Source: a virus
DNA: 48,795 nucleotides
Direction: 5' to 3' (one strand)
IMG/VR virus record: IMGVR_UViG_3300021057_000015
Shown: piece after piece, positions 1 through 30,005 of the stretch
Layout of the letters: each line of letters begins with the position of its first letter
Position numbering within the stretch: the stretch's first letter is position 1
Made by a program: the position numbers and the translations under genes
Notes under the pieces: generated by a model
Told to the model about the DNA's origin: nothing
The model's database searches: none
What the model saw: only the letters and a program-made list of their open reading frames with translations

Positions 1-225
1 GATGAAGACAGGCCATTTAAGCTGGTCTACTGGGACGAAAACGATGGCTGCTGGCGAGCCGATGACCTGCTGGACTGGAAAACCGGCGAGGTCGAGGAAC
101 TGTTTGGCGGCCCCCGGTTTCTGCTGGCGGATAACGCGCCGTACTGGCGGATTGTCGCCAATATCTGGGAGCCCTGGGAAACCGTCTGGAAACGGTTAAA
201 GGAGGAAGTGTCATGCAGCAGCTGA
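1..225 (+). CDS. 3' end of an upstream gene (hypothetical, Trp/Asp/Glu-rich), frame 1, start outside the window
   Basis: Frame 1 is open from the window edge to TGA at 223-225 with GC3-rich protein-like codon usage. The ORF track misses it because it has no Met. It overlaps the next start codon, which looks operon-like. Confidence 0.4.
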   Translation, partial: DEDRPFKLVYWDENDGCWRADDLLDWKTGEVEELFGGPRFLLADNAPYWRIVANIWEPWETVWKRLKEEVSCSS

Positions 226-1829
226 GCCTGTTGGATCTTCCTGAGCTCGCCAAGCCGGAACCCGCCGCCGAAGCCGAGCCCGAAGCTACCACGATCGTGG
301 TAGCTGAGACTGAACCCGCCGCCGAGCCAATGACCCTGCCGCGCTGCCACTTCTGCAATGGGCCCATGCAGCTCATGTGGCCGGACAGGCCGGAGAAATG
401 GGAAACCTGTCAGCGCTGGTGGTTGGCGTGTGAGGATGTCCCGGTAGGCGCCGGCAGCCACGGCTGTTCCGTCTATCTCGATGAACGGCGATTGGCGTGG
501 CATAGCTACATGAACCGTGTCGCCAAGAACCACGATCAGAAATTGACCGCAGCTGAAACAGATGGCCTGCGCGCCCTGCTGCTGGCAGATTGGCGCGAGC
601 GGCAGGAACGGGTTGAGGCCCGGCGCGTGGCAGCGCAGGCAGAAGCTCAGGAGCCGAAGGCCAAGCGGACGCGCACGCCAAAGGCCAAGGCTCCAGATGA
701 GAAGTCAAAACCAGCTATCCTCTCGATGGATTGCAAGATCTGTCGTGACATGGGCGCAGATGCATCTCAGGTTGAATACAGCCATCAGGGCAGCCTGGGC
801 GATCACGTATACATCTGCAAGGCCCGCAACGGCATGCATATTTGCCGCGTGCAAGGCATCCATGAAACCTGGTCGGGCTGGGCCACGGGCCTCCCGGAGG
901 GCTGGTGGTGGGACCGGGCGCATTACTGCTGGGTTCTGACGGACGGGACGCGGCGCAAACCGGGTCTGACACGTCCCGCCGAACCGGCTATGGTAGCGCC
1001 CGATGTTTGTTCAGAACAAACATCCGAGCCCGCGCCGCCCTGCCTCTACAAAGGGTGCTCCGGCTATTATCAGGCCATTGGCCCTGAGCAGTGGGGATGC
1101 ACTCTCAACGCGGAGCACAAAGCCTGGATTGAGCCTAAAAACGCCGGCTGGTTGGACGGTAAGAAACAGCTGGCGGCTGTTCAGCTGATCCAACTGAACG
1201 GGGCGGCGGTTGAAACGGTTTTTCTGGAAGCTCCCGCTTGGGCAGCTGAGCAGCCCTTTGAAACACCCTTGGATCTTGATCTGGATTGCCCGTCTGGACC
1301 CTGTCTGTTCACCGGCTGCCAGGGAACCTATCAGCCATCAGCTGCCGATCGCTGGTCTTGCGACGCCGACCCCACGCATCGGGCCTGGCTGCATCAGCCG
1401 ACCGTGCTCGCTTACCGCTCAATCTACGGCACGACGAACATTCTGCTTGCTGATTGGCTGGCTAGCCAGGCCCAGCAGCTGCAGCCGGACCCGCCGAAAG
1501 AAAAGCCCGCGCGCAAGCCCAGGGCGAAGAAGGCCAAGCCGGCACAGCCCGATCTGACACTTTCAAACGAAACGCCTGCGGTTAGCGAATTTCAGACTTA
1601 TCCACATACAGATTGTGTAAATGTGGATAAGTCTGAAAAACCGGCTGACCGAGCGGCCTGCCGGTTCTGCGGTGAGCCCATGGAGAAGATCCCGGGCCAT
1701 CGGCTCTGGCACTGCTTGAGCGGGAAAGTTCATCGGTTCTGGGTCAAGGGCAAGCAGGGTGTGTGGATGGGGCCGACAGCGACGGATGAGGGGAATGGCG
1801 TGGTGCCGCTGCCGGCCTGGGCGAAGTAA
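213..1829 (+). CDS. Cys-rich multi-zinc-finger-like repeat protein with Lys/Pro/Ala-rich linkers, function unknown
   Basis: 538-aa ORF with a strong RBS (AAAGGAGGAAG). It has internally duplicated Cys/His/Trp motifs (two CxxGCxGxYQ...W.C...H.AW units and two CxFC...MxxxP units) and two AKxKPA-type basic low-complexity linkers. Confidence 0.6.
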   Translation: MQQLSLLDLPELAKPEPAAEAEPEATTIVVAETEPAAEPMTLPRCHFCNGPMQLMWPDRPEKWETCQRWWLACEDVPVGAGSHGCSVYLDERRLAWHSYMNRVAKNHDQKLTAAETDGLRALLLADWRERQERVEARRVAAQAEAQEPKAKRTRTPKAKAPDEKSKPAILSMDCKICRDMGADASQVEYSHQGSLGDHVYICKARNGMHICRVQGIHETWSGWATGLPEGWWWDRAHYCWVLTDGTRRKPGLTRPAEPAMVAPDVCSEQTSEPAPPCLYKGCSGYYQAIGPEQWGCTLNAEHKAWIEPKNAGWLDGKKQLAAVQLIQLNGAAVETVFLEAPAWAAEQPFETPLDLDLDCPSGPCLFTGCQGTYQPSAADRWSCDADPTHRAWLHQPTVLAYRSIYGTTNILLADWLASQAQQLQPDPPKEKPARKPRAKKAKPAQPDLTLSNETPAVSEFQTYPHTDCVNVDKSEKPADRAACRFCGEPMEKIPGHRLWHCLSGKVHRFWVKGKQGVWMGPTATDEGNGVVPLPAWAK

Positions 1830-1857
1830 AGGGCTAGAAGCCGATCAATGGTTAAAT

Positions 1858-1886
1858 TTGCTAAAAATTAGCAGTTGGGCTAAGAT
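1858..1886 (+). promoter_or_regulatory. Sigma70-like promoter TTGCTA-17-TAAGAT with an overlapping 15-bp palindrome TGCTAAaaaTTAGCA (candidate operator) upstream of the AT-rich cassette
   Basis: Hexamers and spacing read directly from the sequence. The palindrome at 1859-1873 is perfect. It lies 30 nt upstream of the 1917 start. Confidence 0.45.
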
Positions 1887-1916
1887 CGATCTCTCTAGCA
1901 GTCATCGGAGCACGCC

Positions 1917-2891
1917 ATGGACAAGACCGTATCAATTGCCCTATATGAAATCAAACTCAAAGCCCATACCGACGAAAAGAAGCCTACCAAGTGGAACGTT
2001 GTTCCCTTTTCCTATCTAAACCGCCAAGACTCTTATGCAGAGTTTATTCGGGACATTATCGATAGGACATTGAGCGATTACCAGCACATTAAGCACACTC
2101 AAGAGGTCTGCTGCCTTGCTGAGCCTATGGCCCTCAATGGGTTTGAACTGGATGGCCGACTGAGATACGGGAAGCACGGTGATGTTGCGGACATCATCAA
2201 CACGGAGAACGCCTTTCAGGAAGAATTCAAGCTTCAGGCGCATCATGCCCCAGTCATGCCATATTATTTCTATTTTTACCTTCATCCGGATGCCGATTCA
2301 GCCTATATGTGCCTTCAGCGCTATGGGAACAAGGGCGCTTACAATGTGCTAAAGACCCAGCTGGAACGAGAGTTTAAGCTTATTTTAGGGGACGATTATA
2401 ATGTCTCAATCAATAAGTTAGCGCCCTATGACTATATCAAGCAAGTCAATAATGACGCGGCCCGCCCCACTAAAATCATCTTATCTTATCCGGTCTTCAC
2501 AAAAGGTTTTGACAAGATAGATGTCGAAAGTGGTGAGAAGGAGCAAAAAGAGGTTAAGCTGAATGCCAGGCAAGTCATCGACATCTCGCCCCTTGGAACT
2601 GGGGCCAAGCTCGAGCATTTCATGCAAAAGTTCAAAAAGGACAAGCCGGCCTTTTATACCGAGATCGGCCTCAAAGAAGACACTCAAACCCGAATCGAGC
2701 GTGAGTATATTGAGGTTAAATTTGGCGGGAAAAACTTTAAGATGACCTTAAGCGAGGGAAGAGAGCTCGCTTCTTACTTTGACGTCACCGATGAGGTTAA
2801 AATCGATCAGGGGGTTCCCGTTCTTAAGGAGATCCGCGCTGCCGTCCAAACGATCATGAAGGCGGTCCTTAAAGCTGCCAGAAAGGTTTAA
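1917..2891 (+). CDS. Hypothetical cytoplasmic protein (324 aa), first gene of an AT-rich acquired cassette
   Basis: Long ORF with AT-rich codon usage (Lys/Asn/Ile/Tyr-rich) that contrasts sharply with the GC-rich surroundings. A GGAG RBS precedes it. It contains no motif I can assign. Confidence 0.7.
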   Translation: MDKTVSIALYEIKLKAHTDEKKPTKWNVVPFSYLNRQDSYAEFIRDIIDRTLSDYQHIKHTQEVCCLAEPMALNGFELDGRLRYGKHGDVADIINTENAFQEEFKLQAHHAPVMPYYFYFYLHPDADSAYMCLQRYGNKGAYNVLKTQLEREFKLILGDDYNVSINKLAPYDYIKQVNNDAARPTKIILSYPVFTKGFDKIDVESGEKEQKEVKLNARQVIDISPLGTGAKLEHFMQKFKKDKPAFYTEIGLKEDTQTRIEREYIEVKFGGKNFKMTLSEGRELASYFDVTDEVKIDQGVPVLKEIRAAVQTIMKAVLKAARKV

Positions 2892-2932
2892 ATTTTGTTC
2901 GCTGAATGCTAAAATAATACAGGAGGATACGA

Positions 2933-3559
2933 ATGTTTCCATTCTCTGTAGCCGAAAAGTTCATTCAGCAAAACCCCGTGGCGGCTTTTGTCTCGGCTGT
3001 GGTTTCGCTTTGTGCTGCCGGTGCCCTGGCCCTTCAAGGGGTCGTCTTCTTCTCGGATACTGCGATCGGCATGTTGCTTTCAGCGGTCGCGCTCTACGTA
3101 GGTACCTTTACCGCCTTTTTGGGATTGCTCTTTAATCTGGTTACCGCCCCTTTGGGGGGCATCGTCGAACCCTCCTCCTACCAGAACCGGATAGAGTGCA
3201 TTCAGCAAACCATTCGGTGCACCGCGCTTAGCGTGGTGTTCACGCTTCTGGCTGTTCCGTGCGTTATTATGGCCCAGGAGAATGCGGTTGTTCCGCTGAA
3301 AGGGGTTTGGCAGGACGCCCTGTTCTTGCCCTATAACCAGTTTGTTCAGCCGTGGTTCTTTTCGATAGCTGTGTTCTTGCTCGCCTATGCTTTTTGCCTG
3401 ACCATCGTCATCTGCAAGCAGATGCATTCGCTGGCTATGATGGCTGTAGACGACAAGCAGGATGAGATCCACAAATACAAATCCACTATCATGCCGACAG
3501 GCGCCCAATCTTCCCAGTCTGCCCCACCTCCCGCAGCAACCACAAAGACTCAGCCTTAA
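2933..3559 (+). CDS. Integral membrane protein (208 aa, about four TM helices, polar C-tail), second gene of the AT-rich cassette
   Basis: AGGAGG RBS 7 nt upstream. Four hydrophobic segments of about 20-25 aa. It lies 41 nt after the previous gene and shares its composition. Confidence 0.7.
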   Translation: MFPFSVAEKFIQQNPVAAFVSAVVSLCAAGALALQGVVFFSDTAIGMLLSAVALYVGTFTAFLGLLFNLVTAPLGGIVEPSSYQNRIECIQQTIRCTALSVVFTLLAVPCVIMAQENAVVPLKGVWQDALFLPYNQFVQPWFFSIAVFLLAYAFCLTIVICKQMHSLAMMAVDDKQDEIHKYKSTIMPTGAQSSQSAPPPAATTKTQP

Positions 3560-3573
3560 ACAGCCAGAACCAC

Positions 3574-3616
3574 AAGCCCCGATGGCCAGAAAAGACCATC
3601 GGGGCTTGTTCTTTGG
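3574..3616. terminator. Bidirectional rho-independent terminator (12-bp stem AAGCCCCGATGG/CCATCGGGGCTT, then TTCTTTGG) between convergent genes
   Basis: Perfect inverted repeat with T-rich flanks on both strands. It sits between the 3' ends of 2933-3559 (+) and 3627-4460 (-). Confidence 0.55.
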
Positions 3617-3626
3617 ATCAGATGGC

Positions 3627-4460
3627 TCAAACCGGCGGTTTTTCGAGCACGGCCAGATGATCGCCGTTGAGATGCTTGTACATCAGGCCTTCGAGCCGGG
3701 TGTTGCGCAGCAGATTGTTGAGTACATCTGCGACACTCTTGCCGCCGAGGATCGCCAGCGGCGCCATGGATTCCGCCATCCGTTCCGCCAGGGCCTTGTC
3801 GCCGAAGGCCTGCAGCGCGGCGATGAAGTCGGGGTTGATCGCCTCGGCCTTTTTGACCACGGCCTCGACTTCGGACTGGAGCGAGAGCAGGCGCTGCTCG
3901 AGCCGCTGCCTGGAGGCATCGATCTCGACCTGATTGCTGGCGCGCAGGCGGGCGAGCTCGGCGTCGTGGACGCCGGAGATCTTGTTCTGCATCTCGAGCT
4001 TGGCCACCAGCCGGGCCTCTTCGAGCGCGATTTCCGACTGGGCCTTGCCGAGCTTGACCTCGAGCTCCTTGCCGATTTCCTGCAACTGCAGCTCCAGCTC
4101 CTGCTGGCGCGTGACCGAGCGCGTGGCCGAGATCCGGCGGTTGATGTCCTCCTGCTGCTGGACGAAATCGAGCCGGCGCCGCTCGGTGGTCAATTGCAGC
4201 GTCTGTTCGACCACGCTCCGCTGGGCCTTGACGAGCATCTTCTCGACTTCCTCGTCGACGAGTTCCACTCTCAGCACTTCCACGTCATATACCCGCATGC
4301 CGTTTTCGGGAAACGTGCGGCCGCGGCGTTCGCCCTCGGCATGCAGCCCGAGAATCGTGTTGCGCAGAATGTCGATTGAGTTGGAATAGAAGGCTTCCAC
4401 GCCCAGCTGTTTGACGGCGTTGCGCACCAGCGAGCGCATATGCTCGGTCAAAAACTTCAC
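3627..4460 (-). CDS. SPFH/band-7 (flotillin-like) protein, C-terminal portion only; probably 5'-truncated by the adjacent IS element
   Basis: Heptad-rich coiled coil (EA/Q repeats) followed by a C-terminal AVVKKAEAINPDFIAALQAFGDKALAERMA...LAILGG segment typical of flotillin/band-7 tails. The N-terminal membrane/SPFH core is absent. The ORF begins with GTG at the IS boundary and stays open into the IS. Confidence 0.6.
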   Translation of the reverse strand: MKFLTEHMRSLVRNAVKQLGVEAFYSNSIDILRNTILGLHAEGERRGRTFPENGMRVYDVEVLRVELVDEEVEKMLVKAQRSVVEQTLQLTTERRRLDFVQQQEDINRRISATRSVTRQQELELQLQEIGKELEVKLGKAQSEIALEEARLVAKLEMQNKISGVHDAELARLRASNQVEIDASRQRLEQRLLSLQSEVEAVVKKAEAINPDFIAALQAFGDKALAERMAESMAPLAILGGKSVADVLNNLLRNTRLEGLMYKHLNGDHLAVLEKPPV

Positions 4461-4533
4461 ATAGTTGCTGTATTTGCGGCTTCTGCAATAATTATCACAT
4501 TCCCGCCCGATCCCCCCGGTCTATCCTGGCAGC

Positions 4534-5733
4534 ATGAAAGCCTACATCGGAATCGACGTCGCCAAGCGTCACCACTATGCCTGGATCCTCGGGGCCGTGG
4601 CCCCGCACAAAAACCCCTTCGTCTTCAGCCACAGCGAGCAGGGCTTCACCCGGCTGGCGGAATGGATCGGGAGCGCCGCCCCCGGCCAAGAGCTGATCTT
4701 CGGTGTTGAGCCGACCGAGCCGTTTTCGGGAGCCCTGTCGGCCTGGCTGCGCCAGCGCGGCTGGACCTGCCACCTGATCCCTGGCGTCTACTGCCGGCGT
4801 GGGAAATACTTCTACACCAATTCCGGCCTCAAGAACGATACCATTGATGCCCAGGTGCTGGCGATGCTGCTGCGCGATGGCCAGTTCAAGACCCATGTGC
4901 CCCAGGCCGAGGCCTTCGGCGAGCTGCGCGAGCTGAGCAATCAGTATCTTCGGCTGGCCAGCATGCGCCGGGCCTCCCTTCAGCGGATCCACAGCCTGGT
5001 CGATCACATCTGGCCTGAGTTCAGCTTGCACATCAAGCTGAGAACAAAGACGGCCCTGGCGCTGCTGCGCCGGTTTTCGCGGCCGTCAGAGGTCGCGGCC
5101 CTGGGCCAAGCCGGTTTCGAGAAATTCGTCTGGGAAGTATCCGCCGGCAAGCTGAAGCAGGAAACGGCCGTCGCGCTCTACGAATCGGCGATCGCGAGCA
5201 TCGGCCTGCCGCGCCAGAGCAATGCTGTCGAGATGCGAATCGAGCTCGAACTGCTCGACTACTTCGACGATTGCTATGCCGAAATGCAAGAGGCGATCAT
5301 TGGCTGGTGCCAGCACATCCCCTATGCGAAGAATCTCCGAACCATCCCTGGCTTCGGGCCGTTGCTGACAGGCCTGCTGCTCGGCCAGGCCGGTGATCTG
5401 AGAAATTATCCGACGCCGCGGCATCTCTACAAGGTCGCAGGCGTCAACCTCACCGAGCGCAGCAGCGGCCTCTACAAAAGCCCTGTCCGGATCTCGCGCT
5501 CTGGCAGTCCGGCCCTGCGCCGCTGCCTGTTCTCAGCAGCTGCCAGCCAGTGCGGCGGCAGCCGCGGCAAAGGAATATTTCGAGAATGGTACCTCGAGCG
5601 CAGAGAACGGAGTATTCCCCGATCCAAAACGGTGATTGCGGCAGCACGTAAGCTTCTGCGCGTCGCCCACGCCATCGCCCGGGATGGCGGCCATTTTCGA
5701 GATTGTCGTCTGCCGACGCCCGTTTGCACGTAG
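4534..5733 (+). CDS. IS110-family (DEDD-type) transposase
   Basis: The N-terminus MKAYIGIDVAKRHHYAWIL is the hallmark IS110 N-terminal domain. A C-terminal helix-rich domain follows. Length is 399 aa. Confidence 0.9.
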   Translation: MKAYIGIDVAKRHHYAWILGAVAPHKNPFVFSHSEQGFTRLAEWIGSAAPGQELIFGVEPTEPFSGALSAWLRQRGWTCHLIPGVYCRRGKYFYTNSGLKNDTIDAQVLAMLLRDGQFKTHVPQAEAFGELRELSNQYLRLASMRRASLQRIHSLVDHIWPEFSLHIKLRTKTALALLRRFSRPSEVAALGQAGFEKFVWEVSAGKLKQETAVALYESAIASIGLPRQSNAVEMRIELELLDYFDDCYAEMQEAIIGWCQHIPYAKNLRTIPGFGPLLTGLLLGQAGDLRNYPTPRHLYKVAGVNLTERSSGLYKSPVRISRSGSPALRRCLFSAAASQCGGSRGKGIFREWYLERRERSIPRSKTVIAAARKLLRVAHAIARDGGHFRDCRLPTPVCT

Positions 5734-5788
5734 TCGAGGCGTAGACCTCCGCGAGGAATTATCGGCGCGGTGGATGGCGGTAACAGAG

Positions 5789-5832
5789 GCCCCAGGTTGT
5801 GACCCCCTGGGGCTTTCTGTCTTTTCGCTGTT
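5789..5832 (+). terminator. Rho-independent terminator downstream of the transposase (stem GCCCCAGG/CCTGGGGC, then a T-rich tract)
   Basis: 8-bp GC stem followed by TTTCTGTCTTTTCGCTGTT. Confidence 0.5.
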
Positions 5833-5914
5833 GTAAGGCTTTTTGCAATGGTGTATAGGTTGAATATTGGAGGGGTCGGCCCCCAGCGCTCAAAATACCC
5901 TAAGGATAAAACCT

Positions 5915-6154
5915 ATGATCAAACTCGATCGCCGCCCCTTTTTCGATGGTCACCCGGTTCGCTTTGATGAGCAGCCGATGGAGATCATCCAGGTTCCACT
6001 CGAAGATATTCTGCCGCTGATTGAGGCGTTGGAGCTGGGTGAGAAGCTTCCTTGTTGGGAATCTGATGACAACCTGTTTTCTTCGTTCCAGAGCCAAGAA
6101 GGCGGATGGGTCAGTGTGACCTTGCCTAGGTGGATTGAGGCCACGAACGGCTAA
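5915..6154 (+). CDS. Hypothetical small protein (about 80 aa)
   Basis: ATG preceded by an AAGGA RBS. An alternative TTG start lies at 5867. Protein-like composition. Confidence 0.4.
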   Translation: MIKLDRRPFFDGHPVRFDEQPMEIIQVPLEDILPLIEALELGEKLPCWESDDNLFSSFQSQEGGWVSVTLPRWIEATNG

Positions 6155-6209
6155 GACGTTTGAACCTCACCCCTGCATACTGGATTCGCCGGAAAGTGTC
6201 ACCTGAGGC

Positions 6210-6452
6210 TCAAGGTGGATCCAGATGCTCGGGCTTGAGCTCGTCGATCAGAAATTGCTCGAGCGGGGCCAGCGCGTCGGAGAGCTCAAGCATCAGATCG
6301 TCATACTCACGGGTGAAGGTGCCGTCATTGATCTCAGGGATCGCGTCGAGCAAGAGTTTCACAGCCTCGGTCAACGCCCCCACAGCAGCCTCTTTGCTGG
6401 CGCTCAGGCTGCGGCGATTTCGGTGGGCTTGAAAGTCGATCGGATCACTCAT
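6210..6452 (-). CDS. Hypothetical small acidic protein (about 80 aa, MSDPIDFQ...)
   Basis: Internal Met of the longer ORF 6210-6557. The region upstream of Met36 is Arg-rich junk-like. Convergent with 5915-6154. Confidence 0.35.
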   Translation of the reverse strand: MSDPIDFQAHRNRRSLSASKEAAVGALTEAVKLLLDAIPEINDGTFTREYDDLMLELSDALAPLEQFLIDELKPEHLDPP

Positions 6453-6612
6453 GGCCCTAGCATACCGGCTTCGCCTCCAAGTGTCATATCGGCCAAGCCG
6501 GCTCGTGCATTGGCTAAGGGTCATGAAAAAACCGCGGTCCCAGCTTCCCTGGTGCACCGCAGCGGGCCAGAACGGAAGCCGAGGAGTTGATCCCCGGCCG
6601 GCCTACCTCACA

Positions 6613-6783
6613 TCAGAAATACCAGGCCTTATAGCCGTAATCCGATGCTTCCATGATCTTCCCGGTCCGGTAGTGCCGGTAGCGCGTCTTGAACGACTTC
6701 CGGTTTTTCCGAGAACCAGCGTTATTTCCGCCGTTGCTGCTGTTGCCAGGGGTTGGTTTCTGGCGGTTACTTGAGTTGCTCAT
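6613..6783 (-). CDS. Small, very basic Ser/Asn/Lys/Arg-rich protein (56 aa)
   Basis: Internal Met of the ORF 6613-6963. AT-rich promoter-like DNA lies upstream. Speculative. Confidence 0.3.
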   Translation of the reverse strand: MSNSSNRQKPTPGNSSNGGNNAGSRKNRKSFKTRYRHYRTGKIMEASDYGYKAWYF

Positions 6784-6963
6784 AACTTTTCTGTAAACCT
6801 TTAACAAATTTAATTTTACTTGCTTGGAATTACAGGAAAGTCTACAATGGTAGTGACTCGCTACTTTTGTAGCTTCCCTGCAACCACCTCCAAGCGGGGT
6901 GCGACACCGGGAATGCAGCCCCGGAGCGCCAACTTCGGGGTTGTCTGCTTTTTCAACAGGCAT

Positions 6964-7065
6964 TCATCGATATCTCCTTTTCCGTTTTCGTGACAGCGCC
7001 TTCACGTCGTGAAGCCATCTGCTATTGCCCTTTTCAGGACCCAAAAAATCACTTAGGCCAGCCAT
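6964..7065 (-). CDS. 33-aa basic peptide ORF (MAGLSDFLGPEKGNSRWLHDVKALSRKRKRRYR) whose start codon lies inside a 12-bp stem
   Basis: The minus strand carries tandem AGGAGA SD-like motifs 5 nt before the ATG. The start codon is part of the inverted repeat at 7055-7108. It is not in the ORF track because it is under 60 aa. Confidence 0.2.
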   Translation of the reverse strand: MAGLSDFLGPEKGNSRWLHDVKALSRKRKRRYR

Positions 7066-7108
7066 GGTCGTCTCCTAGTCTCCTAGAACAACTTCTCATG
7101 GCTGGCCT
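7055..7108. promoter_or_regulatory. Large stem-loop: perfect 12-bp inverted repeat AGGCCAGCCATG / CATGGCTGGCCT around a 30-nt loop that contains a tandem 8-bp repeat TCTCCTAG x2
   Basis: Read directly from the sequence. It lies in a roughly 300-nt ORF-poor structured segment (6960-7260) that also holds the 15-bp palindrome CTTCACGtCGTGAAG at 7000-7014. Confidence 0.4.
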
Positions 7109-7257
7109 GCATTCCAGTCAAGGATGCAGGCCAAGAACATGTCATCCACGTCCTATGCCAACGGATCCGAGACTGGCCTGGTTATCCAGTTCCTGAATCC
7201 AGGGCATGGATCCGCTTTAATTCGGCTCCTATAGTTTCACCCTGGACAGGCACTGAC

Positions 7258-7563
7258 TTATGCCAGTGGGCCTTGCGGCCTCTCTAATTTAATACTATCC
7301 AAAAGCTGCCGATAGATCAAGTGATCTACCTTAAAAATTATACAGCTTATCGAAGCCTGGGATACATACTCGATCCAAAACGTCGTAATATGATCACAAA
7401 TGACTAGATTTAATGATAATAATGTTTGGATCATTTGTGCCTGAATCCCTTGTATCATAAGGGTTTCGATGGAACTCAATTTCGAGAAGCGTTTGGGAAA
7501 ATCCTTGAATACAGGCCGTTTAATCGCCGGGCCGATGTCGGCTCCGTGGTAGCATTCCCTCAT
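7258..7563 (-). CDS. Hypothetical protein, partly in an AT-rich segment (weak call)
   Basis: Internal Met of ORF 7258-7665. Composition is mixed. Confidence 0.2.
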   Translation of the reverse strand: MRECYHGADIGPAIKRPVFKDFPKRFSKLSSIETLMIQGIQAQMIQTLLSLNLVICDHITTFWIEYVSQASISCIIFKVDHLIYRQLLDSIKLERPQGPLA

Positions 7564-7813
7564 GTGCACGCCGCGCTTCTTCGCCAGCGGCCGCCCCGTG
7601 GAGAGCGAGCCGGTTGAACCGACCTCGGGCTGGGCCCGGCTCGAGCGCCGTGAGCATGTCCGCAATGGCTTGATTGCGGGGTATTCGGTCTGGACCCTGC
7701 GCCCAGATGGCCAGCCCGTGCTGCAGGGGCGCTACTCAGCAGCGATCTGGGACGATCAGGCCGAGGCTCAGTCGAGCCTTCACTATCACCAGCTGCTGGG
7801 CCTGCTGCGCTGA
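7562..7813 (+). CDS. Hypothetical small protein (83 aa)
   Basis: GC-rich ORF that ends just before the bidirectional terminator. Confidence 0.35.
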   Translation: MCTPRFFASGRPVESEPVEPTSGWARLERREHVRNGLIAGYSVWTLRPDGQPVLQGRYSAAIWDDQAEAQSSLHYHQLLGLLR

Positions 7814-7814
7814 T

Positions 7815-7862
7815 CCAAAAACGACGAAAAAATCCCGGCCAGGGAAACAGCCCGGCCGGGCG
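7815..7862. terminator. Bidirectional rho-independent terminator (stem CCCGGCC/GGCCGGG); on the minus strand it is followed by ATTTTTTCGTCGTTTTT and ends the phage late operon
   Basis: Hairpin flanked by an A-tract on the plus strand and a T-tract on the minus strand, immediately downstream of the last late gene (7889-8074). Confidence 0.55.
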
Positions 7863-7888
7863 CTGAGTGTGAACGTGAAGAGAAAGGG

Positions 7889-8074
7889 TTATTGGCTGGC
7901 AATCACCTCGGCTGCGATCTGCTCGGCCTGAGCGATCTGCTCGGGCGTGGCGTCCGGGTGCAAAACGATTTGCCGGCCCGCCAGGGTGCCGTCGGTGTCG
8001 CGCACAGTGACAATCGGCAGGCCTTCCGCCTCGATTTCAGTATGGATTTGACGAAAAATGGCATCAATATCCAT
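7889..8074 (-). CDS. Small phage protein (61 aa), last gene of the late operon
   Basis: GGGAGGA RBS. Its start overlaps the stop of the tail-fibre gene. Confidence 0.55.
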   Translation of the reverse strand: MDIDAIFRQIHTEIEAEGLPIVTVRDTDGTLAGRQIVLHPDATPEQIAQAEQIAAEVIASQ

Positions 8075-8076
8075 GT

Positions 8077-8997
8077 TTAGAAGTATCCTCCCACAATTAA
8101 ACCAGTTTGAACAGGATTAGCGCCATTATCACCGTATATCGTGGAGGTGCCCCCCGACGAATATTCGATTGCCGAAATGAACGAAAATCCAGGTTCCAAA
8201 AATCCAGACCAGCTGGCAGACAGCACTTCACCGGCATTGCCGCCTGTGGCGTAGGCCCCAAAACCTGACCTGGCCGTCGTGGAATTGACCCCAATATTGG
8301 CCGCTCCCGCGGTGGAAGCCGCCGTGCTGATGAATGCCTGGTAGGTGGCGGTCAGGGCTTCAAGTTTTCGACCGATCACCACATTCGCCCGGTAATTTGA
8401 GCTATTGTTGGCCGCCCGCCAGGCCCCGACATTGCCATAGGTCCACGAATTCGTTGTGTCGTGAATCATGGTCGGCACAAACACCCGGTTGCTCTCGTTC
8501 CATACAAACAGATTGGCCGCCGCCGCATCGCCGCCGAAGCTGAACTCACACTGCCCGGTGACGCCAGTCGTTCGAATCGTTCCCAGATAGCGCCTGGCGG
8601 GCGCGCCTGTTTTGCACCAGACGCCATCTTGCTGGGCCAGGGCTACTGCCCTGGTTGAATCGTTCGTCCACTCCACCGCCTCAAGTGTCAGTGTGCCGCC
8701 GCTGGAGTACCCGAAGATATCGAAGTTCTTGTTGGCCGCAAACCCGCTCAAGCCCAGGCTGGCCTCGCTAAAGCTGAGCAGCTCCCAGGCACCGCCAGAG
8801 AAGAGTGCGATCTGATTGCCCTCGTGCGGCGTGTAATAGAGGGTGGTTTTGGCCGTCTGGCTGGTGGTCATGACCGGTGTGCCGCTGACCAGGGTCAGCC
8901 GGCCATTGGCTGTGCCGACCGGGACAACCGCGGCGGCAGCCGCTGCGGAGGATCCGCCCGTGCCCCAGCCCTGGCCGGGGATGTAAACCGGGCTCAT
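8077..8997 (-). CDS. Tail fibre / receptor-binding protein (Gly/Ser/Thr/Ala-rich, 306 aa)
   Basis: Fibre-like low-complexity beta-rich composition with N-terminal GQGWGTGGSSAAAAAA. Position at the distal end of the tail module. Confidence 0.65.
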   Translation of the reverse strand: MSPVYIPGQGWGTGGSSAAAAAAVVPVGTANGRLTLVSGTPVMTTSQTAKTTLYYTPHEGNQIALFSGGAWELLSFSEASLGLSGFAANKNFDIFGYSSGGTLTLEAVEWTNDSTRAVALAQQDGVWCKTGAPARRYLGTIRTTGVTGQCEFSFGGDAAAANLFVWNESNRVFVPTMIHDTTNSWTYGNVGAWRAANNSSNYRANVVIGRKLEALTATYQAFISTAASTAGAANIGVNSTTARSGFGAYATGGNAGEVLSASWSGFLEPGFSFISAIEYSSGGTSTIYGDNGANPVQTGLIVGGYF

Positions 8998-9419
8998 ACC
9001 ACGGCCACCAAGGCGCGGGTTTCGATGTCCGCGATCTCATTGGCGTAGCCGTGGCCAGGCCGAAGCGTCACCGTGCCGGTAGCGGCCCCGCCATCAGCCT
9101 TGAACCGAATCGAATTGAATTCCTCGTGCTGGGCGATTGGGAAGCTGGCGCCAGCGGCCACCTCCTCAATCCGGCTGCTGGTATTGGCCGTGTGCAGATT
9201 GCCGGCCGGCGTGTCGGCACTGCCGTCGTACTTGGTCACGTAAAAATACAGCTTCCGGTCGGTGTCGTTGACCACGTTGCAGACCTTCACGTTCAGCGGC
9301 AGCCGAAACAGGGCCTCAGTGGTGCTCGAGAACGGACAGGTATAGCGGCGATGGGCCAGCGGGATGTCGCGCTCTTCGGCAGACCGCGTATCGTCCTGGG
9401 TGATGTTTGAATAGGGCAC
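8994..9419 (-). CDS. Phage tail-associated protein (141 aa)
   Basis: Overlaps its neighbours in the late operon. No recognisable motif. Confidence 0.5.
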   Translation of the reverse strand: MPYSNITQDDTRSAEERDIPLAHRRYTCPFSSTTEALFRLPLNVKVCNVVNDTDRKLYFYVTKYDGSADTPAGNLHTANTSSRIEEVAAGASFPIAQHEEFNSIRFKADGGAATGTVTLRPGHGYANEIADIETRALVAVV

Positions 9420-9434
9420 AGGGATAGGTCCTTT

Positions 9435-9602
9435 CTACGGTCGAATCAGGGATAAGCCGGTGATGACAGCACCGCTGAGCAGAATCAGCGCTGCCAGGAA
9501 ATACAGGGCATTCCGCCACTTGTGCTCAGCGGGCCGGAGTTTCAGGATCACGAGCGTCAGCAGCGCTGCCAGGATTTTGAGAGTGACTATCACGGGTGTC
9601 AT
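9435..9602 (-). CDS. Small 2-TM membrane protein (55 aa; class II holin-like or antiholin-like)
   Basis: Not in the ORF track. ATG preceded by AAAAGGAGG. It translates to MTPVIVTLKILAALLTLVILKLRPAEHKWRNALYFLAALILLSGAVITGLSLIRP. It overlaps the 3' end of 9526-9900 out of frame. Confidence 0.4.
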   Translation of the reverse strand: MTPVIVTLKILAALLTLVILKLRPAEHKWRNALYFLAALILLSGAVITGLSLIRP

Positions 9603-9900
9603 CGAATCCAAACCTCCTTTTCATCTCCTTTTCACAATAGGCAAGGAAGCCCAGGCCCATGTAGCCGGCCATTCCCGCCAGAAAGATTTTGTAGTACATC
9701 CCGTCGAGGTGAAGCATCTGGGCCAGCGGGATCGCCATCAGGGCACAGAAGCCCGAGATGCAGGCATTGGCAGCCAGCAGCCAGATGAAGCGCCAGCCGC
9801 GGGCCCCGGTGTCGCGGTTATCGGCCACGGTGCGCGCGATGGAGCCGTAGAGCGCCACCACGGCGCAGGCGATGAGGTCGATCAGCTCTTGCTCGGTCAT
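9526..9900 (-). CDS. Membrane protein with about three TM helices (124 aa), holin-like
   Basis: Hydrophobic segments AVVALYGSIA, FIWLLAANACISGFCALMAIPLA and IFLAGMAGYMGLGFLAY. Located immediately downstream of a putative cell-wall enzyme gene. Confidence 0.5.
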   Translation of the reverse strand: MTEQELIDLIACAVVALYGSIARTVADNRDTGARGWRFIWLLAANACISGFCALMAIPLAQMLHLDGMYYKIFLAGMAGYMGLGFLAYCEKEMKRRFGFDDTRDSHSQNPGSAADARDPETPAR

Positions 9901-16156: not shown

Positions 16157-19100
16157 TTAGTTCAGGCTGCCCATAAAGGTGCCGTTGACCTTGGCCAGAT
16201 TGGGATCGATGCCGGCCTGGCGCAGGGTCTCGAGCACCATGCGCCGGACCTGCTCCGGGTTTTTGGCGTCGTAAATCGGAATGTTGATCTCGTAGGCCCG
16301 CTGCTGGTTGTAGACGCTGCTGGTGCCGCCGTGGTTCATGCGCCAGGCGCCTTCGATCAGCTCGGCGAACCACTTCGGAAAGACGGGCTCACCGCTGTTG
16401 AGCAGGGCCGGGAAGCGATCCCCGTCGAAGCCGGCCGGCACCACGCCGCCGCCAGCCATGCGCGGCAGGCCGGTGCTGCCCAGCATCTTCGAAACCATAT
16501 TCTGAGCGTAGGCTTCTGCCTGCGCCACGTTCAGCGATTTGCCTTCTACGCCGAGGGTATAGGCCAGATTTCCTGTGGTCTTGACGCCCAGCGCCGCAGC
16601 TTCCTTGAGCTGATGGACCAGCCCGCGGTACCAGCTGGTGATATCGGCCAGGGGCCGCTTGATCCCGTTGCGCAGCTCAGTGACCGCAACTTTCCACGGG
16701 TTATGGGCCTCAGTCAGGGCCTTGACGGACTTGTCGATTTCCTTCAGATCGCGGTCGCGCTCCTCGGTCAGCCTGGCCAGGTCGGACCGGTAGGCCTCCA
16801 GGTTCTGCTGGACCTTGGCCGCTTTCTTGTCGTTGGCGGCGATCTGGGTCTCGATATACGCCACTTCCTTCTCAGTGGCGTCTCGCATAGCTTCCAGATG
16901 CGCTTCTTTGAAGCTGGTGTAAGCCTGCGCCTGCATCTGCTGCAGCTCCAGATAGGCCCGGCTGCCTTCCTCGGCGGTCTTGAGCTGCTCGGCGGCAAAC
17001 CGGCCCTCGATCGCCGCGATCCGCTTCATCTCGTCCAGGAAAAGGGCTTTGTTCTTGGCGGGATCAGTGGAGTCAAACTGTTCGAGGTTGAATTTGTTCT
17101 CGGCTGAGAGCTTGAGCAGCGCCGCCCGCTCTTTCATGGCCTCGATGTGGGACTGGCCGGAGTAGGTTTCGGTCAGGACGCCGTCTGGATTGTGAATCGC
17201 CTTGAGGCCGGCGCGCAACTCCGCGTCGAAGTCGACGCCCGCGACGGCTTTGGCGTAGAGGCCTTGGTCTTCGCGCTCGAATTTCGCCTCATCCTGGGCC
17301 AGTAGTTCACGCTTGAGATCGATCTGTTTGCGCAGGCGCTCGTTCTGGGCTTCAATCTTGGCCAGCAGGCGCTCATGCAGGGCAATTTGCCTGTTGGTGT
17401 GCGCGGAATCCTCCTCAAACATCTCCTGCTGCGCCTCGGCCATCGCTTCGGCACGCTGCCGCAACAGGTTCTCGGCATCCTGCAGGTTCTTGTTGAGTTG
17501 CTGCTTGGCAGTGTCACTGGCCTTGTCGACCGCTGCCTGAATCTGCCGGTGAAACTCCGGCCAGAGCTTGGCCAGCCGCCTCTGAAATTCGGCTTGGACG
17601 TCTTCCGGCGGCTGCAGCCAGTTGATGTGCCGGCCGTGAAACTCCTCTTCGATTTCGGTCTGGATGTCCCGAACGGCCTCGGCATACTGATCGCCGACCT
17701 CGGCGAAGTCCACGTTCGAGGGATCCAGACCCAACCGGGCCAGAAAGTCCTTTTTCAGGGCGTCGCGCTTGGCCGGCTCGTCATAGTTCCGCTTCTGATA
17801 GGCCAGCCGGTTCTGGATTTTATCAAGCTCCCGCTGGGCCCGCTCCTGCGGGTCCGTTCCCAGCGCACCGAAGATGCCCGGCAGGATTTCGACAAAGGCC
17901 TTCTGTGCTGCCTTGATATCGTCCGACATCTGGCCCGTGTGCTGATTGACCGTGCGCGCAAGCTCGGCAAAGTCGTTTTTGACCTTGGCCTGCTTCTCAA
18001 GGGGAATGCCGTCGAGATTCAGCGTCAGGCCGTTTGGTCCCCAGGTGACGCCCTGCCGGCCAAGATTACGGTTGAAGTCGTAAATGGCGTCTGTGATATC
18101 CTTTTCGGCCCCCTTGATGGCCCGATCCACCTCAAGCTGATAGGTGGACTTGCCGTTCGCCTTCGCAGCGCGGATCTGGCGATCGAGATCATCGAGCTCC
18201 GCCGCGTCTGCGATGGCCTTGGCGCGCTCAGCTTCTTCGCGGGTTTCGCGGATCAGGCGCTGGGTGGTGGTAATCATGCCGATCACGGTGCTGAAGACGT
18301 TCAGGAAGCCCTGGATGGCCCCACCAATAAAGTCACCGCTCAGGATCCGGCCGATGGCGCCGAACGCGCCTCCCGCCACACTGACCAGATTGTGGAAGGA
18401 CTCGGCGGCATCGCGGTCGAATTCGGCGATGGCGTCGCCGATCATGCGGAAAACGCCTACGCCGGCATCTGCCACCTGGGCCAGGTTCTCCTTCGAGAAC
18501 ATGTCTTTCAGGATGTCAGAGGGCTTGACCTCAGCATAATCCTGGCTTGCTTTCTTGCTGCTGCCGCCCTTGCTTGGCTTGCCAATGGCAGCGGCGTCCG
18601 GCCGGCGATCCATGAACAGCAGTGCGAGGGGATCCGCAGCATTGGAAACGCTTTTGTCGCCGGCCTTGCCCTCAAGGATGTCCCGGGTGCGGATATACTC
18701 CTGCATGCCCTTAGTCAGCTTGCCCAACTGGCGATCCGTCAGGCCGTACTTTTTGCCCAGCTCCTCAACACTGGCCGCTCCGCCATTTACCTGGATGATG
18801 AAATCCCTCATGGCGTCGCCGTTGGCCAGTAAGCCATCGATGAAGGCCCGGCCTTTGTCGTTGGCTTCATCTAAATTAGCCAGGTACTGATCGGAGTCTT
18901 TTCCGGCCAGCGCAACCGCCTCCATGCTCAAATGGTCGGACGCAACGCTTTGGTTGCCCCACTGCGTGGGCTTGGAGCCGTAGAGTCGCTCGTACTGGAA
19001 GACAAGCCTCCGCTGGCTTCCCTCGATGTCCTTGAGCCCTTTTTCCATTTCCGCAAGCTGCTGGGCCTGCTCGGCCGACATGTCTTTGCTCATGGAACGC

Positions 19101-22100
19101 AGCAGGGCGATGGCATCGCGGTACTCGGTGGCTTGCTTAGTCAGATCCCGGATCTGCTGCTCACGGGCCTGCATATCGCCAAATACCGGATCGACTTCAG
19201 CCTCTTCCGGCAGCAGGCCGGCCTGGCGAATAGACTCCTTTAGCTGGTTGAACTGGTCTCGGCCGGCGTCGGCGGCCTGCTTGGCGCCACTGACATATGC
19301 GTCGAAAGCACTCTTGTAGAAATCCATCAAGCTCTGAATGCTCTTCTGGATTTCTGCCTGCACTTCCTTTTCGGCCTGGATCCGCTCTTTGGTCCAGTCG
19401 AGGTGATGCTGCGCGAGTTCTCTGCCGGCTTCGGCTTCACGCTCACGCAGACCACGGAGCGCGTCGGCGGCCTTTAGCTCGTCCTCGCTGCCGGCCTTGA
19501 GCTTCGAACGATAAGCCTCGACTAGCAAAATTGCCTTGTGGATGGCGGCGGCCTTTTGCTTGATCAGGCCGGTCTCTCGCTCGTGTGCGCTCATATCGGC
19601 GTCGTCCGGATGACTGAACCCATTCCCCACCAGGCGCTGCATGTTGGCGGCAATGCTGATCGGCTTACCGCCGCGCTCTCGAATCTCGAAATGCCCATGC
19701 GGGCCGGTGCTGCGGCCAGTGCTGCCAGACAGCGCGATTTGCTCGCCCTGTCGGACCACATCTCCAACTTTCTTTGCCAAGCTGCTGTTATGGGCGTACA
19801 GAGTCACCAGGCCGTTGCCGTGGTCGATCATCACGGTCTTGCCGTAATTGCCCTTCCAGCCAGACTGAATCACCGTCCCGCCCTGAGCCGCAAACACAGG
19901 GCTGCCAGCAGCCACAGGAACATCCCGCGCCTCGTAACCATGGCTGTGCGCTCCGCGCCCCATCCGGGCCATATTGGGGTACACCAGGCGCATTAGCTCT
20001 TCTTCGGAGTGGACGTGGCGCTCAGACTCCTGGGTCTGTAAACGCATCTCTTCAGTGGTGAGCTTTTCGGTTTCAAGCCGGGTCTGGGCGGTTGAGAGCC
20101 GGGAAAGCTCAGCATTGAGCGCCGCCATAATTACGTCGAGCTGATTGCTGCTGCCAGTGCCGCCGCCTGGTCCGGGATCGGGCTTGGACCGGTCTCCGCT
20201 GCCCGGCGCTTCCTTGGGACCCTGAATGGGCTTGAAATACTTGTTGTAAGCCCGCTCGCGGATACGATCCATTTTTTCCTGGTCGCCCAGGGAATTGAAT
20301 ACAGTATCAGCTACGGATTTGAAATTGTTGGCCGTGTTTTCGAACTCGGATTTGAACCAGTTCCAATCCCGCTCCCAGACCGCCCGGAGCATGCGCGTGA
20401 AGCTGCCAAAGGTCTTGAACAGCCCGCCGAAAACGTCATCAGTGAAGCCCACGAAGGTGATCAGGGTTTCAACGGCCAGCTGCTGGATGCCTTTGAAGAA
20501 CTGCCCCATCTGACTCATCGCCTGATCGAGGCCATCGGTAAGCCCTGAGAACGAGCCCAGCATCTCGTCAATGATGTCGCCGATACCAGCGAAATTGGTC
20601 TTGTAAGCCTGATAAATCAGTGCCGCTGCGCCGATGAAGGCGCCTATCGGACCGGTTACGAGCTTCATCAGCCCAGCGCCCCAGGTGCCGCCCGCGCGCT
20701 GGGCCGCCATCATGCCCTTTACCACCTTGCCATCGAGCACTTCATTCAGCAGATCGAGCGCCTTGACGCCCTGGCCTGCTAGGAAGACGATGCCGCCGGC
20801 ACCCAAGAAGACGGCGCTGGCACCAACAGCCAGCAGAGCGAGATTACCGATGACGGCCTTTATCGGGCCAGGCAGATCGTTGAAGAGTTGAACCGCTTCC
20901 TTGCCTGTGCCGATGATGAGGCGCAGGGTGGGCAGGATGGACTCGGCAAACTCGATTCGCAGATCTTCCAGGTCGTTCAGCAGCTCGCGGAATCCGAAAC
21001 CCTCGGATTGCCGCATGATTTCAAAGGTGCGCTCGGTAATTTTGTTGTGGTCGTCGATGGCCTTGGAGGTCTTTTTGAGCTTTTCTTCGGTCTGCGTGAG
21101 ATAGGTCGCAAAGGCGTTTCCGCCAGTCTCGCCAAAGATCTTTTCTGCCAGGTTGATTTGCTTTTCCCGGCTCATGCCCTCCATGGCCTTTTTCATTTCC
21201 GCAAGCGTGGTCAGCACCGGCCGAATCTCGCCGTTGGCGGCTACGATAGAGGTTCCGAGTTCAGCAAAGCCCTTCTTACCCTCTTTTGTCATGACGATCA
21301 TGCGCGTCAGCATGCTCTCGGCGGCCTCGCCGGCCACGCTGGGCGAGAGGCCGGCGTCGATCAGGGTTGCATAGAGCTTGGCGGTGTCCTCAAGGGTTTG
21401 ATTGGCCTGGGCGGCTTTGCTTGCAAGCTGCTGGAAACCTACGCCAATCTCAGAAATAGAGGCGTCGCTGGCGTTCGCTGTAGCCACCAGGATATCGATA
21501 GTATTGTCTAGTTGCTCGGTAGTGAGACCGAAAGCCCGGTTGACCGCCAGAGATACCTTTGAAACCCGGTCCATCTGCTCATTGACATCAACGGCAGCTT
21601 TGCTGAGCTTGCCGAGATGGGCTGTGACCTCTTGGGCTTCGAGGCCGGCCCGACCCAGGGCGGCGGCGGCAGTCGCCGCCGCAGTGGTACCAATGCCTTC
21701 GAGGTCTTGGGCGGTATCTACCAGCTTGCGGACATCAGCTTCGGTGGCGTTGGCCTGGGCGCGGAAAGCGGTGGTCTGGTCGGACAGGTCCATCATGGAC
21801 TTTGAAGCAGCACCAATGCCCATACTCAGCGCCAGGAAAGTCCCGGCGGCGAGCGTCCGGCCGGTGCCGGCGAGTTCCTGAGCGGTTTCGACCTGTTGCT
21901 GCTTGGCGCGGGCAATTGCGTTGGCTTGAACGGCATGTAAGCGGGCTTCTTCGGCGGCCTTGACCTGCAGCACTCTCTGCCGGCTCTTTTCGGTCAGATC
22001 GGCAATATGACGCTCGCCTTGGGCAATCTTTTCCATCAGGGCAACGCGGTCTTTTTCGGTCAGACTAGCCGCCTGCAGCTTGCCTCTGAGTACATCGACA

Positions 22101-27755: not shown

Positions 27756-28115
27756 TCATACCGGCCCTTCTTCGATGTAAATGATCTCGCCGATCCGTTT
27801 TTCGAACTCATCGGCGAACTCCTTGGCCCGCTTGGCCTTGGCCTCATCGGAATTGGCAAATTTGTAGTGGGCATTGTCGACCTTTTCCTCGAGCAGCACG
27901 CTCGCCCCGGCAGACTGCGAGCCGGGCTTGGCCAGCGTCATCAGCTCAGCGGTTTTGTAGGCGACGAGCAGATTGTACTCGTCGCCTACAATGTCGGCGT
28001 TGACGTGCTTCTGAGCCCGGGCAATGAAGCGGTCGATCTTGTCGAGGTCCGCCTGCACAGCCGATTGAAGCTCCGGCGCAATGTCGAAGAGCTCGGTGCG
28101 GATGGCCTGCGACAT
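27756..28115 (-). CDS. Head-tail connector / adaptor protein (119 aa)
   Basis: Small helical acidic protein directly downstream of the capsid gene. Confidence 0.5.
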   Translation of the reverse strand: MSQAIRTELFDIAPELQSAVQADLDKIDRFIARAQKHVNADIVGDEYNLLVAYKTAELMTLAKPGSQSAGASVLLEEKVDNAHYKFANSDEAKAKRAKEFADEFEKRIGEIIYIEEGPV

Positions 28116-29192: not shown

Positions 29193-30005
29193 TCAGGCGG
29201 CGACGAGGTTCAGCTCGAGGTCGATGATGCCGTCCGCCGACGCGCCCGTTTCCGCCTTGATGCCACTCGGCAGGGCCAGGGCCACCACCGGGGAGGTTCC
29301 GGCGACGTCTTCGATCACGCCGCGGTGCTCGTTCGTGCCACCGCCGGCAGCAAAACGCGCATGCAGGGCGGTTTCGGTAGTGACCGTTGCGCCGGTGAGC
29401 ACCGAAACGCCGCCGCGCACCATCATGCGCAGGGTGTCGCCGGTCTCGTAGCAGTAGCCCGAATCGGTCGCTTCGTTGTCCTTCTTCGTTGCAAAGCCCA
29501 CGATCTCGTCGGCCGAGCCGGCGGTATAGGTGTAGGTCGGCTGGCCGGCGCCGCCGGTGGTGACGAAGTTGGCCGCGGACACCGCACGGTCACCGCTGGC
29601 GATGATGGTCCAGGTCCGGGCCGTGGCATCGACTGTACAGGACAGCACGCCGCTGACCGCGCGGATTTTCACGGCGATCGCTTCCATGGTGTCGGCATGG
29701 GACGTTGCAAAAACCGTCGCGGTCAAGCTGGTCGTGGTGGCCGAACCGCCCAGCGGGGTGATCGTGATGTCACCGACCGTGCTGTTAGAGGCGACGAGGT
29801 CCACGCTGGCCTTGACCACGAATTTGGTCTGCATAGGCTTGCGGACCTTGGTCTTGTCGCGGGGATAACCCGAGTAGACCAGCGCCACATCGGGCTCGAG
29901 GTTCTCGACGGCCTTCACGCTCTTGAGGAAATTGGAATGGTTGATCTGGCCGCGCTTGCGGGTCGCGGGCGAGCTGCCGTAAGTCGTCTGAATTTCAGTG
30001 GCCAT
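29193..30005 (-). CDS. Head structural / decoration-like protein (270 aa, Thr/Ala/Gly/Val-rich beta protein)
   Basis: Called from composition and from its position between the protease-scaffold gene and the capsid gene. Confidence 0.45.
   Translation of the reverse strand: MATEIQTTYGSSPATRKRGQINHSNFLKSVKAVENLEPDVALVYSGYPRDKTKVRKPMQTKFVVKASVDLVASNSTVGDITITPLGGSATTTSLTATVFATSHADTMEAIAVKIRAVSGVLSCTVDATARTWTIIASGDRAVSAANFVTTGGAGQPTYTYTAGSADEIVGFATKKDNEATDSGYCYETGDTLRMMVRGGVSVLTGATVTTETALHARFAAGGGTNEHRGVIEDVAGTSPVVALALPSGIKAETGASADGIIDLELNLVAA

Follow-up and report, generated by a model that had tools for sequence, protein, structure and literature searches.

A probable RexAB-type exclusion cassette, very divergent in sequence, carried by a metagenomic tailed phage

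We analysed a virus contig of 48,795 nucleotides (nt) from the IMG/VR collection (IMGVR_UViG_3300021057_000015; hereafter, the window) and found that a two-gene cassette at positions 1858-3616 is probably a RexAB-type phage-exclusion or abortive-infection module, the cargo of a siphovirus-like phage or prophage, in which a soluble protein, A, would serve as sensor and DNA clamp and a small membrane protein, B, as effector. The initial annotation of this DNA had regarded the cassette as a candidate novel, horizontally acquired pair of a soluble sensor and a multi-transmembrane effector. The predicted fold of A, the conserved pairing of the two genes and the genomic contexts of their relatives all support this idea, except for the supposed novelty of the type: the predicted RexA/RdgC fold of A, together with a gene layout like that of lambda rexA-rexB, places the cassette with a known kind of system.

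The cassette and its predicted proteins

Both open reading frames (ORFs) that had been described in the cassette, of 324 and 208 amino acids (aa), are present, and each is preceded by the ribosome-binding site ascribed to it. The genes lie on the same strand, with A first, are separated by 41 nt and share one terminator:

1917-2891, plus strand: gene A, 324 aa, 37.4 kDa, isoelectric point 7.1; product predicted to be cytoplasmic, with a predicted RexA/RdgC-type two-domain fold
2933-3559, plus strand: gene B, 208 aa; four predicted transmembrane (TM) helices; putative inner-membrane protein
1907-1910, plus strand: ribosome-binding site of gene A, GGAG, 6 nt before ATG, read from sequence
2921-2926, plus strand: ribosome-binding site of gene B, AGGAGG, 6 nt before ATG, read from sequence
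3572-3609, plus strand: intrinsic-terminator-like hairpin with a perfect 14-bp stem (3572-3585/3596-3609), a 10-nt loop and a UUCUUU tail

The hairpin, which closes the two-gene unit and is placed between B and a convergent gene, has a folding energy of -32.1 kcal/mol (z = -5.5; 0 of 200 shuffled sequences fold as well), so that the shared terminator is real and stronger than had been claimed, its stem measuring 14 rather than 12 bp. The GC content of the cassette (48.9%) is well below that of equal-length stretches of the window (mean 60.5%, standard deviation 3.1%), among which it ranks second of 941 for low GC. The reported drop in GC is thus borne out and counts as support for horizontal acquisition; the label 'AT-rich', applied to DNA of 49% GC, holds in a relative sense only.

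Sequence searches left both proteins unassigned, in agreement with the initial annotation, which could recognize no motif in either: Pfam, PADLOC and NCBIfam returned no match for A or B. For A, this extends to PHROGs and PDB (with E<=1 for Pfam and PADLOC), and 60 aligned members of the A family likewise matched nothing in Pfam, PADLOC, NCBIfam or PDB at E<=0.01; 34 and 18 of these 60 proteins, respectively, fall in two PHROGs, both of unknown function. Word-index homology searches with A and with B each retrieved the query itself alone, a search of this kind with the A-family alignment retrieved only 5 proteins, and tblastn of A yielded no match among phages and a single, chance-level one among plasmids.

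Profile searches and structure prediction had both been suggested for the pair; the former were negative for Pfam and PADLOC, and the latter led, in the case of A, to RdgC. AlphaFold modelling of A with the 60-sequence alignment gave a mean predicted local distance difference test (pLDDT) score of 79.9 and a predicted template modelling (pTM) score of 0.76, with pLDDT above 90 at residues 1-170 and ~290-320; the single-sequence model reached a pLDDT of 31. In a Foldseek search of PDB with the family-based model, RdgC was the sole significant match (E 2.5e-5 to 2.5e-4), and in BFVD the matches were uncharacterised phage proteins of ~280-320 aa and phage RdgC proteins. As far as the predicted structure goes, the soluble component has the two-domain fold of RexA and RdgC. 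The model comprises a beta-rich N-terminal domain, a middle domain of low confidence and a C-terminal helix as confident as the N-terminal domain. This layout, read from the secondary-structure string and pLDDT only, would fit a RexA-like split globular domain plus dimerisation domain, as described for lambda RexA (PDB 8TWQ; Adams et al., 2024; PMC11077077).

The positions conserved in the A family are mainly glycine, proline and aromatic residues (G80, G85, G88, P115, F118, G140, G299 and P301), along with a few basic ones, and include no catalytic-looking set. Such a pattern is as expected of a binding protein, not an enzyme, and an enzymatic role for A was ruled out on the grounds that no residues of catalytic type are conserved.

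Protein B has the four hydrophobic peaks that had been claimed for it, near residues 16, 48, 96 and 142; TM4 is immediately followed by a KQMH motif, and the protein ends in a hydrophilic tail of 45 aa. Because most of the positive charges lie after TM4, both termini are predicted to be cytoplasmic.

Conserved pairing and mobile contexts of the relatives

An exhaustive HMMER search with A collected at least 237 cluster representatives (clusters at 50% identity) at E<=1e-3, nearly all of them 300-330 aa long and aligned end to end. The closest relatives are 46% and 34% identical to A and are the only two above 30%; no close relatives of the window clade were found in metagenome or viral collections, and this clade appears to be rare. 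The loci that we sampled came from metagenomes, from Vibrio, Pseudoalteromonas, Psychromonas, Yersinia, Pseudomonas, Alteromonas and other genomes, and from two Pf phages.

A genuine module should, as the initial annotation had pointed out, recur as a pair in other genomes, and it does. A same-strand, B-like partner ORF directly follows the A homologue in all 21 loci with downstream sequence, and a truncated 22nd locus agrees with this order. The distance from the stop codon of A to the start of the partner ranges from -67 to +159 nt in the 16 loci measured. The partner ORFs are 167-212 aa long and have four hydrophobic peaks (three, at the threshold used, in locus L022), and in most copies TM4 is followed by a [KR][RQ][MIV]H motif. 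A hidden Markov model (HMM) built from 17 partners of other loci scores B of the window at 18.7 bits (E 1e-5), against 9.3 bits for the best of 200 shuffled sequences. The two genes, the second encoding a small four-TM protein directly downstream on the same strand, accordingly form a conserved pair.

The genomic contexts of these pairs are hallmarks of a mobile accessory unit, or moron, exchanged with known defence systems. For instance, Pf phage PfAC16 (L013; OR863247, 412-1883) and a second Pf prophage of Pseudomonas aeruginosa (L014; OQ658363, 2524-3995) carry an A/B-like pair of 311 and 179 aa at the left end and in convergent orientation to the repressor gene. The slot of the PfAC16 pair holds a retron in PfAC01a and Kiwa plus ShosTA in PfAC02a; the describers of these genomes named only a toxin-antitoxin system and PfsE as defences of PfAC16 and did not count ORF1 and ORF2. 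In Vibrio cholerae GCA_045018675.1 (L004; 8001-9498), the pair stands right after zot of a filamentous prophage integrated beside rtxA, presumably in the cargo slot that ctxAB occupies in CTXphi. In Vibrio sp. WZ-1/V. cincinnatiensis (L015, 739-2236; L016, 1405-2902), it lies between attC/V. cholerae repeat (VCR)-like repeats (TAACAAAC...GGGCGTTA) and is preceded by a TATAAT-containing spacer, and therefore forms a two-gene cassette of a chromosomal integron. A contig of a Mu-like phage (L022; SRR14610221, 6001-7551) holds the second-closest relative of the pair. There it interrupts the structural gene block, running against its direction, with the Mu-like protease/scaffold genes on one side and the tail-S/MuF genes on the other, as is typical of morons; according to tblastx, the A-like ORF of this contig may begin upstream of the called 276-aa gene. 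Among the other loci, the pair follows an integrase in one and lies beside a resolvase in a small chromosomal stretch in another. NCBI copies of the Vibrio-type A are all annotated as 'hypothetical protein'.

The presence of Kiwa in the same Pf-phage slot bears on a comparison made in the initial annotation, namely that the cassette might resemble KwaA/KwaB with the gene order inverted. Kiwa is indeed a two-gene system that combines a four-TM protein with a DNA-binding protein of ~315 aa, and the protein sizes are similar to those found here. The comparison nevertheless fails on HMMs, fold and gene order: there is no match to PADLOC Kwa or to Pfam DUF4868, KwaB is a Rossmann-like protein with DUF4868, unlike the predicted RexA/RdgC-like fold of A, and KwaA is encoded first. 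We therefore rejected Kiwa, a scenario that we consider extremely improbable.

In the locus of the closest relative (L002), a convergent, repressor-like HTH_3/HTH_31 gene comes directly after the pair. The window encodes a 109-aa protein (43465-43794, minus strand) that is 70% identical to the product of this gene (tblastn E 1e-41; 71% DNA identity over 440 nt); in a circularised contig, ~7 kb would separate it from the cassette. With so similar a gene lying elsewhere in the window, it follows that related phages carry the cassette at different places.

Proximity to repressor genes, as seen in L002 and in the Pf phages, could suggest that the pair serves the life cycle of the carrier phage, with A biasing the lysis-lysogeny decision as RexA does, or modulating recombination or replication in the manner of RdgC, and B modulating A or shielding proteins from host proteases, like RexB. 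In lambda, RexA stabilises the lytic state without the help of RexB, and proteolysis by ClpXP/ClpAP is inhibited by RexB; furthermore, the pair in the window follows plus-strand genes, maybe an early region, where an Erf recombinase is also encoded. This reading, which we consider rather unlikely, has to contend with the promoter-bearing integron cassettes of Vibrio, which have no surrounding phage, and with the chromosomal copy beside a resolvase, where there is no phage switch to serve, as well as with the variable position of the pair between related phages and its location in a defence-system slot in Pf phages.

Relation to Rex-type systems and alternative readings

Five Rex-like systems had been described as of 2026 (PMC12894663). 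The cassette shares with lambda RexA/RexB the A-then-B gene order and a four-TM B protein, but both of its products are larger (324 aa for A compared with 279 aa for RexA, a difference of 45 aa; 208 aa for B compared with 144 aa for RexB, a difference of 64 aa, with a hydrophilic tail), and whereas lambda rex lies near the repressor/immunity region, the pair in the window is not adjacent to a repressor-like gene. Closer in size is RexABpp of the Pseudomonas putida prophage P1 (PP_5643/PP_5644), with a tagged RexA of 37.5 kDa and a RexB of at least 181 aa, compared with 37 kDa for A and 170-210 aa for the B-type proteins. In this system, both genes are needed, and RexApp, which binds DNA, causes the membrane to become permeable in a RexBpp-dependent manner when over-expressed (Rosendahl et al., 2026; PMC12894663). 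By contrast with the A family, which hhalign did not link to lambda RexA, PP_5643 is linked to it by HHpred (98%). The termini of PP_5643, as deduced from published primers, matched none of the 154 collected proteins, and exact DNA pattern scans were empty.

A further counterpart is Sucellos (SclA/SclB) of the V. cholerae chromosomal integron, which is described as RexAB-like by structure, although Pfam domains miss it; this integron cassette has two genes, both of them required, and a promoter of its own, SclB is a predicted TM pore, and the system also occurs in prophages (bioRxiv 10.1101/2024.07.02.601686). DefenseFinder detects Sucellos in Salmonella and in a Nitrosospira phage. The Vibrio A/B relatives are likewise two-gene cassettes with attC-like repeats. 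The Vibrio-type A is not the N16961 protein itself, because its 90%-identity clusters hold only three V. cholerae entries. Judged by its predicted structure, the A/B family shares with Sucellos and RexABpp both a RexAB-like architecture missed by the Pfam Rex domains and the organisation of a two-gene mobile unit.

The Rex-like systems of actinobacteriophages, Sbash gp30/gp31, CarolAnn gp44/gp43 and Butters gp30/gp31, are expressed from the prophage and exclude unrelated phages. As in the cassette, a cytoplasmic RexA-like protein is combined with a four-TM partner, an organisation that a much larger family should share according to the prediction of Gentile et al. Unlike the A family, Sbash gp30 has a recognisable DUF4747 motif; the hosts of Sbash, CarolAnn and Butters are Actinobacteria; and the two Butters proteins take the opposite roles to those proposed here for A and B. 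RdgC (PDB 2OWL/2OWY), for its part, is a stand-alone housekeeping or phage recombination protein without a membrane partner, whereas A is always paired.

By analogy with lambda RexAB, P. putida RexABpp and Sbash gp30/31, on which we modelled the mechanism, A would form a dimer that clamps DNA non-specifically and senses infection, like lambda RexA and P. putida RexApp, and B, like RexB, Sbash gp31 and RexBpp, would be a four-helix inner-membrane effector with both termini in the cytoplasm. An event in the cycle of a superinfecting phage, such as the formation of a replication or recombination intermediate or the appearance of a phage protein, would trigger A. Activated A would then contact B from the cytoplasm, the likely contact sites being the conserved N-terminal segment, the TM2-TM3 loop and the K-R-M/I-H motif that follows TM4, whereupon B would oligomerise or open as a channel or pore. 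Membrane potential and ATP would collapse, growth would stop and the infection would abort.

The same two parts could also work with the opposite polarity, in which case B would be a sensor or anchor that holds A, and A an effector that binds phage DNA and blocks its replication or recombination without membrane damage. This is the arrangement in mycobacteriophage Butters, where the RexA-like gp30 is the effector and is merely sequestered by the membrane protein gp31 (PMC12894663), and in Kiwa, too, a four-TM sensor activates a DNA-binding partner. A shares its predicted fold with RdgC, which forms a ring, binds DNA and interferes with RecA, and conserved basic positions in the A family would suit such a role. 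Given, however, that the membrane protein is the effector in four of the five described Rex-like systems (PMC12894663) and that two conserved basic positions of the family are lost in A of the window, the reversed arrangement seems unlikely to us, if less so than a role in the phage life cycle.

RexABpp is also instructive with regard to toxin-antitoxin or addiction pairs, in which A would neutralise B, a membrane toxin, or to lysogenic-conversion membrane functions unrelated to phage exclusion; the initial annotation had allowed for such alternatives, which found no positive support here. A tightly linked, mobile two-gene unit with a small membrane protein is reminiscent of these, and both integron arrays and Pf phages carry toxin-antitoxin cassettes. 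On the other hand, A is large for such a role (324 aa), no antitoxin was found among the structure-search matches of its predicted DNA-clamp fold, and no toxin-antitoxin family of PADLOC, Pfam or NCBIfam matches A or B. In RexABpp, moreover, B is silent alone and is activated by over-expression of A, the opposite of what an antitoxin does (PMC12894663). An addiction pair is, in our estimate, still more improbable than a function in the life cycle of the phage, and both are less likely than a RexAB-type module in view of the fold of A and of the stand-alone integron cassettes in which the pair also occurs.

Several observations weigh against assignment to the RexAB type. The relationship is built on predicted structure and gene layout: neither A nor B has detectable sequence similarity to lambda RexA or RexB, and A matches neither the RexA and DUF4747 profiles of Pfam nor the Rex models of PADLOC. 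In hhalign comparisons, the A family reached a probability of only 0.3-0.6% against lambda RexA or a 4-sequence RexA alignment, and the B family 0.3% against lambda RexB. B has no match in Pfam (RexB included), PADLOC, PHROGs, NCBIfam or PDB, the B-family HMM gives no score to the RexB family, and a four-TM topology is common among proteins. Nor does Pfam RdgC match A or the 60 family members, so that the link to RdgC is the fold, which RexA and RdgC have in common; the middle alpha/beta domain of the model has a pLDDT of only 52-65. At several conserved positions, A of the window differs from the consensus of its family; examples are F274, where 95% of the members have K/R, and L106, where 84% do. 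The pair does not adjoin the repressor-like gene of the window, and its expression from a resident prophage is assumed, lysogeny genes not having been found. The initial annotation had called the element a prophage, which is plausible but unproven: the 48.8-kb contig contains no recognised integrase, attachment site, tRNA or host gene. Finally, defence is not the only role of Rex-type proteins, and the described systems do not all signal in the same direction (PMC12894663).

There is some room, clearly smaller than that for a RexAB-type module, yet larger than that for any of the other alternatives, for the A/B family being a separate, unnamed branch of systems that combine an RdgC fold with a four-TM protein, distinct from lambda RexAB, RexABpp and Sucellos. 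Members of this branch may work differently, e.g. with the membrane protein in the role of sensor and the clamp as the effector that acts on incoming DNA. Whichever way the comparison with SclAB and PP_5643-5644 falls, the cassette in all likelihood represents a known kind of defence in a very divergent form.

Expression signals and surroundings in the window

Two promoter-like sites and an inverted repeat accompany the genes:

1858-1886, plus strand: putative sigma-70-like promoter TTGCTA-17-TAAGAT, matching 8/12 consensus positions; the promoter scanner made no call, and its status is uncertain
1859-1873, plus strand: inverted repeat TGCTAA-AAA-TTAGCA, with 6-bp arms and a 3-nt spacer, overlapping the putative promoter
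2887-2915, plus strand: promoter-like site TTTAAA-17-TAAAAT with a TG extension (extended -10), at the A-B junction; called by the scanner, 9/12 matches

According to the initial annotation, the cassette has its own sigma-70-like promoter, overlapped by a perfect 15-bp palindrome that would act as an operator. Neither proposal held up well. The promoter and the inverted repeat are both missing upstream of the closest homologue (L002), where 45 nt separate A from the preceding gene. Repeats of the same type, two 6-bp arms around 3 nt rather than a continuous palindrome, occur 23 times in the window, ~12 being expected by chance; an operator was ruled out on account of this chance-level occurrence and the failure of conservation. 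The leader (1845-1916) has no significant structure (z = +0.17), and as no terminator intervenes between the upstream gene, which ends at 1829, and A, read-through into A is possible. The second promoter-like site might let B be expressed separately, but may equally be due to chance, given that the A-B junction has a GC content of only 34%. Lambda rexB has a separate promoter, P_LIT, which this site before B recalls.

The window is a tailed-phage genome with the structural and lysis genes on the minus strand:

32600-33961, minus strand: terminase
30005-31681, minus strand: head protease
28115-29116, minus strand: major capsid protein
16157-22981, minus strand: tape measure protein, 2274 aa
11614-12843, minus strand: tail-fibre protein
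9526-9900, minus strand: holin
46728-47588, plus strand: Erf-type recombinase
4534-5733, plus strand: IS110-family transposase
3627-4460, minus strand: 5'-truncated gene, 277 aa, with a Pfam MVP_shoulder match at profile positions 50-118 only (C-terminal part)

The IS110 element and the broken gene are the neighbours that the initial annotation had named; beyond the IS110 element, the 5' half of the MVP_shoulder gene is not visible. On the other side, directly upstream of the cassette, a 538-aa ORF (213-1829, plus strand) contains five Cys-rich, zinc-ribbon-like repeats of the CxxC...C/H type, joined by Lys/Pro-rich linkers, and has no match in Pfam, PADLOC, PHROGs or NCBIfam. The DNA between IS110 and the lysis genes (5750-8000), perhaps decayed cargo or regulatory DNA, has only short ORFs with poor coding signal and includes a second GC trough (~41-49% at 6600-7500). 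Residues ~1010-1230 of the tape measure protein form an embedded peptidase/endolysin-like segment, with matches to metallo-endopeptidase and endolysin PHROGs.

A search of the window for an integrase or a cI-like repressor, with proteins from the other loci, recovered the HTH_3-like ORF at 43465-43794 alone. Pfam searches with ten flanking or early ORFs, blastn of positions 1-8000 against phages and an Rfam search of positions 1-9000 returned no match. The contig, which derives from metagenome run SRR7004167, has ends without terminal overlap.

Rex is the oldest known phage-exclusion system, and its mechanism is still unclear. The present analysis introduces no new principle; what is new is the size of an unannotated family and its spread across mobile elements, whereby a pair without sequence relatives of known function, found in a metagenomic phage, joins a sizeable and strictly paired family with a predicted RexA fold. 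The presence of this family in Pf phages of P. aeruginosa, in filamentous phages and integrons of Vibrio and in Mu-like phages offers more Rex-type systems for comparative and mechanistic work and draws attention to accessory genes that lack annotation in Pf prophages of clinical relevance. Should the family prove to be a separate branch, it would represent an abortive-infection or exclusion system so far unrecognised in inoviruses.

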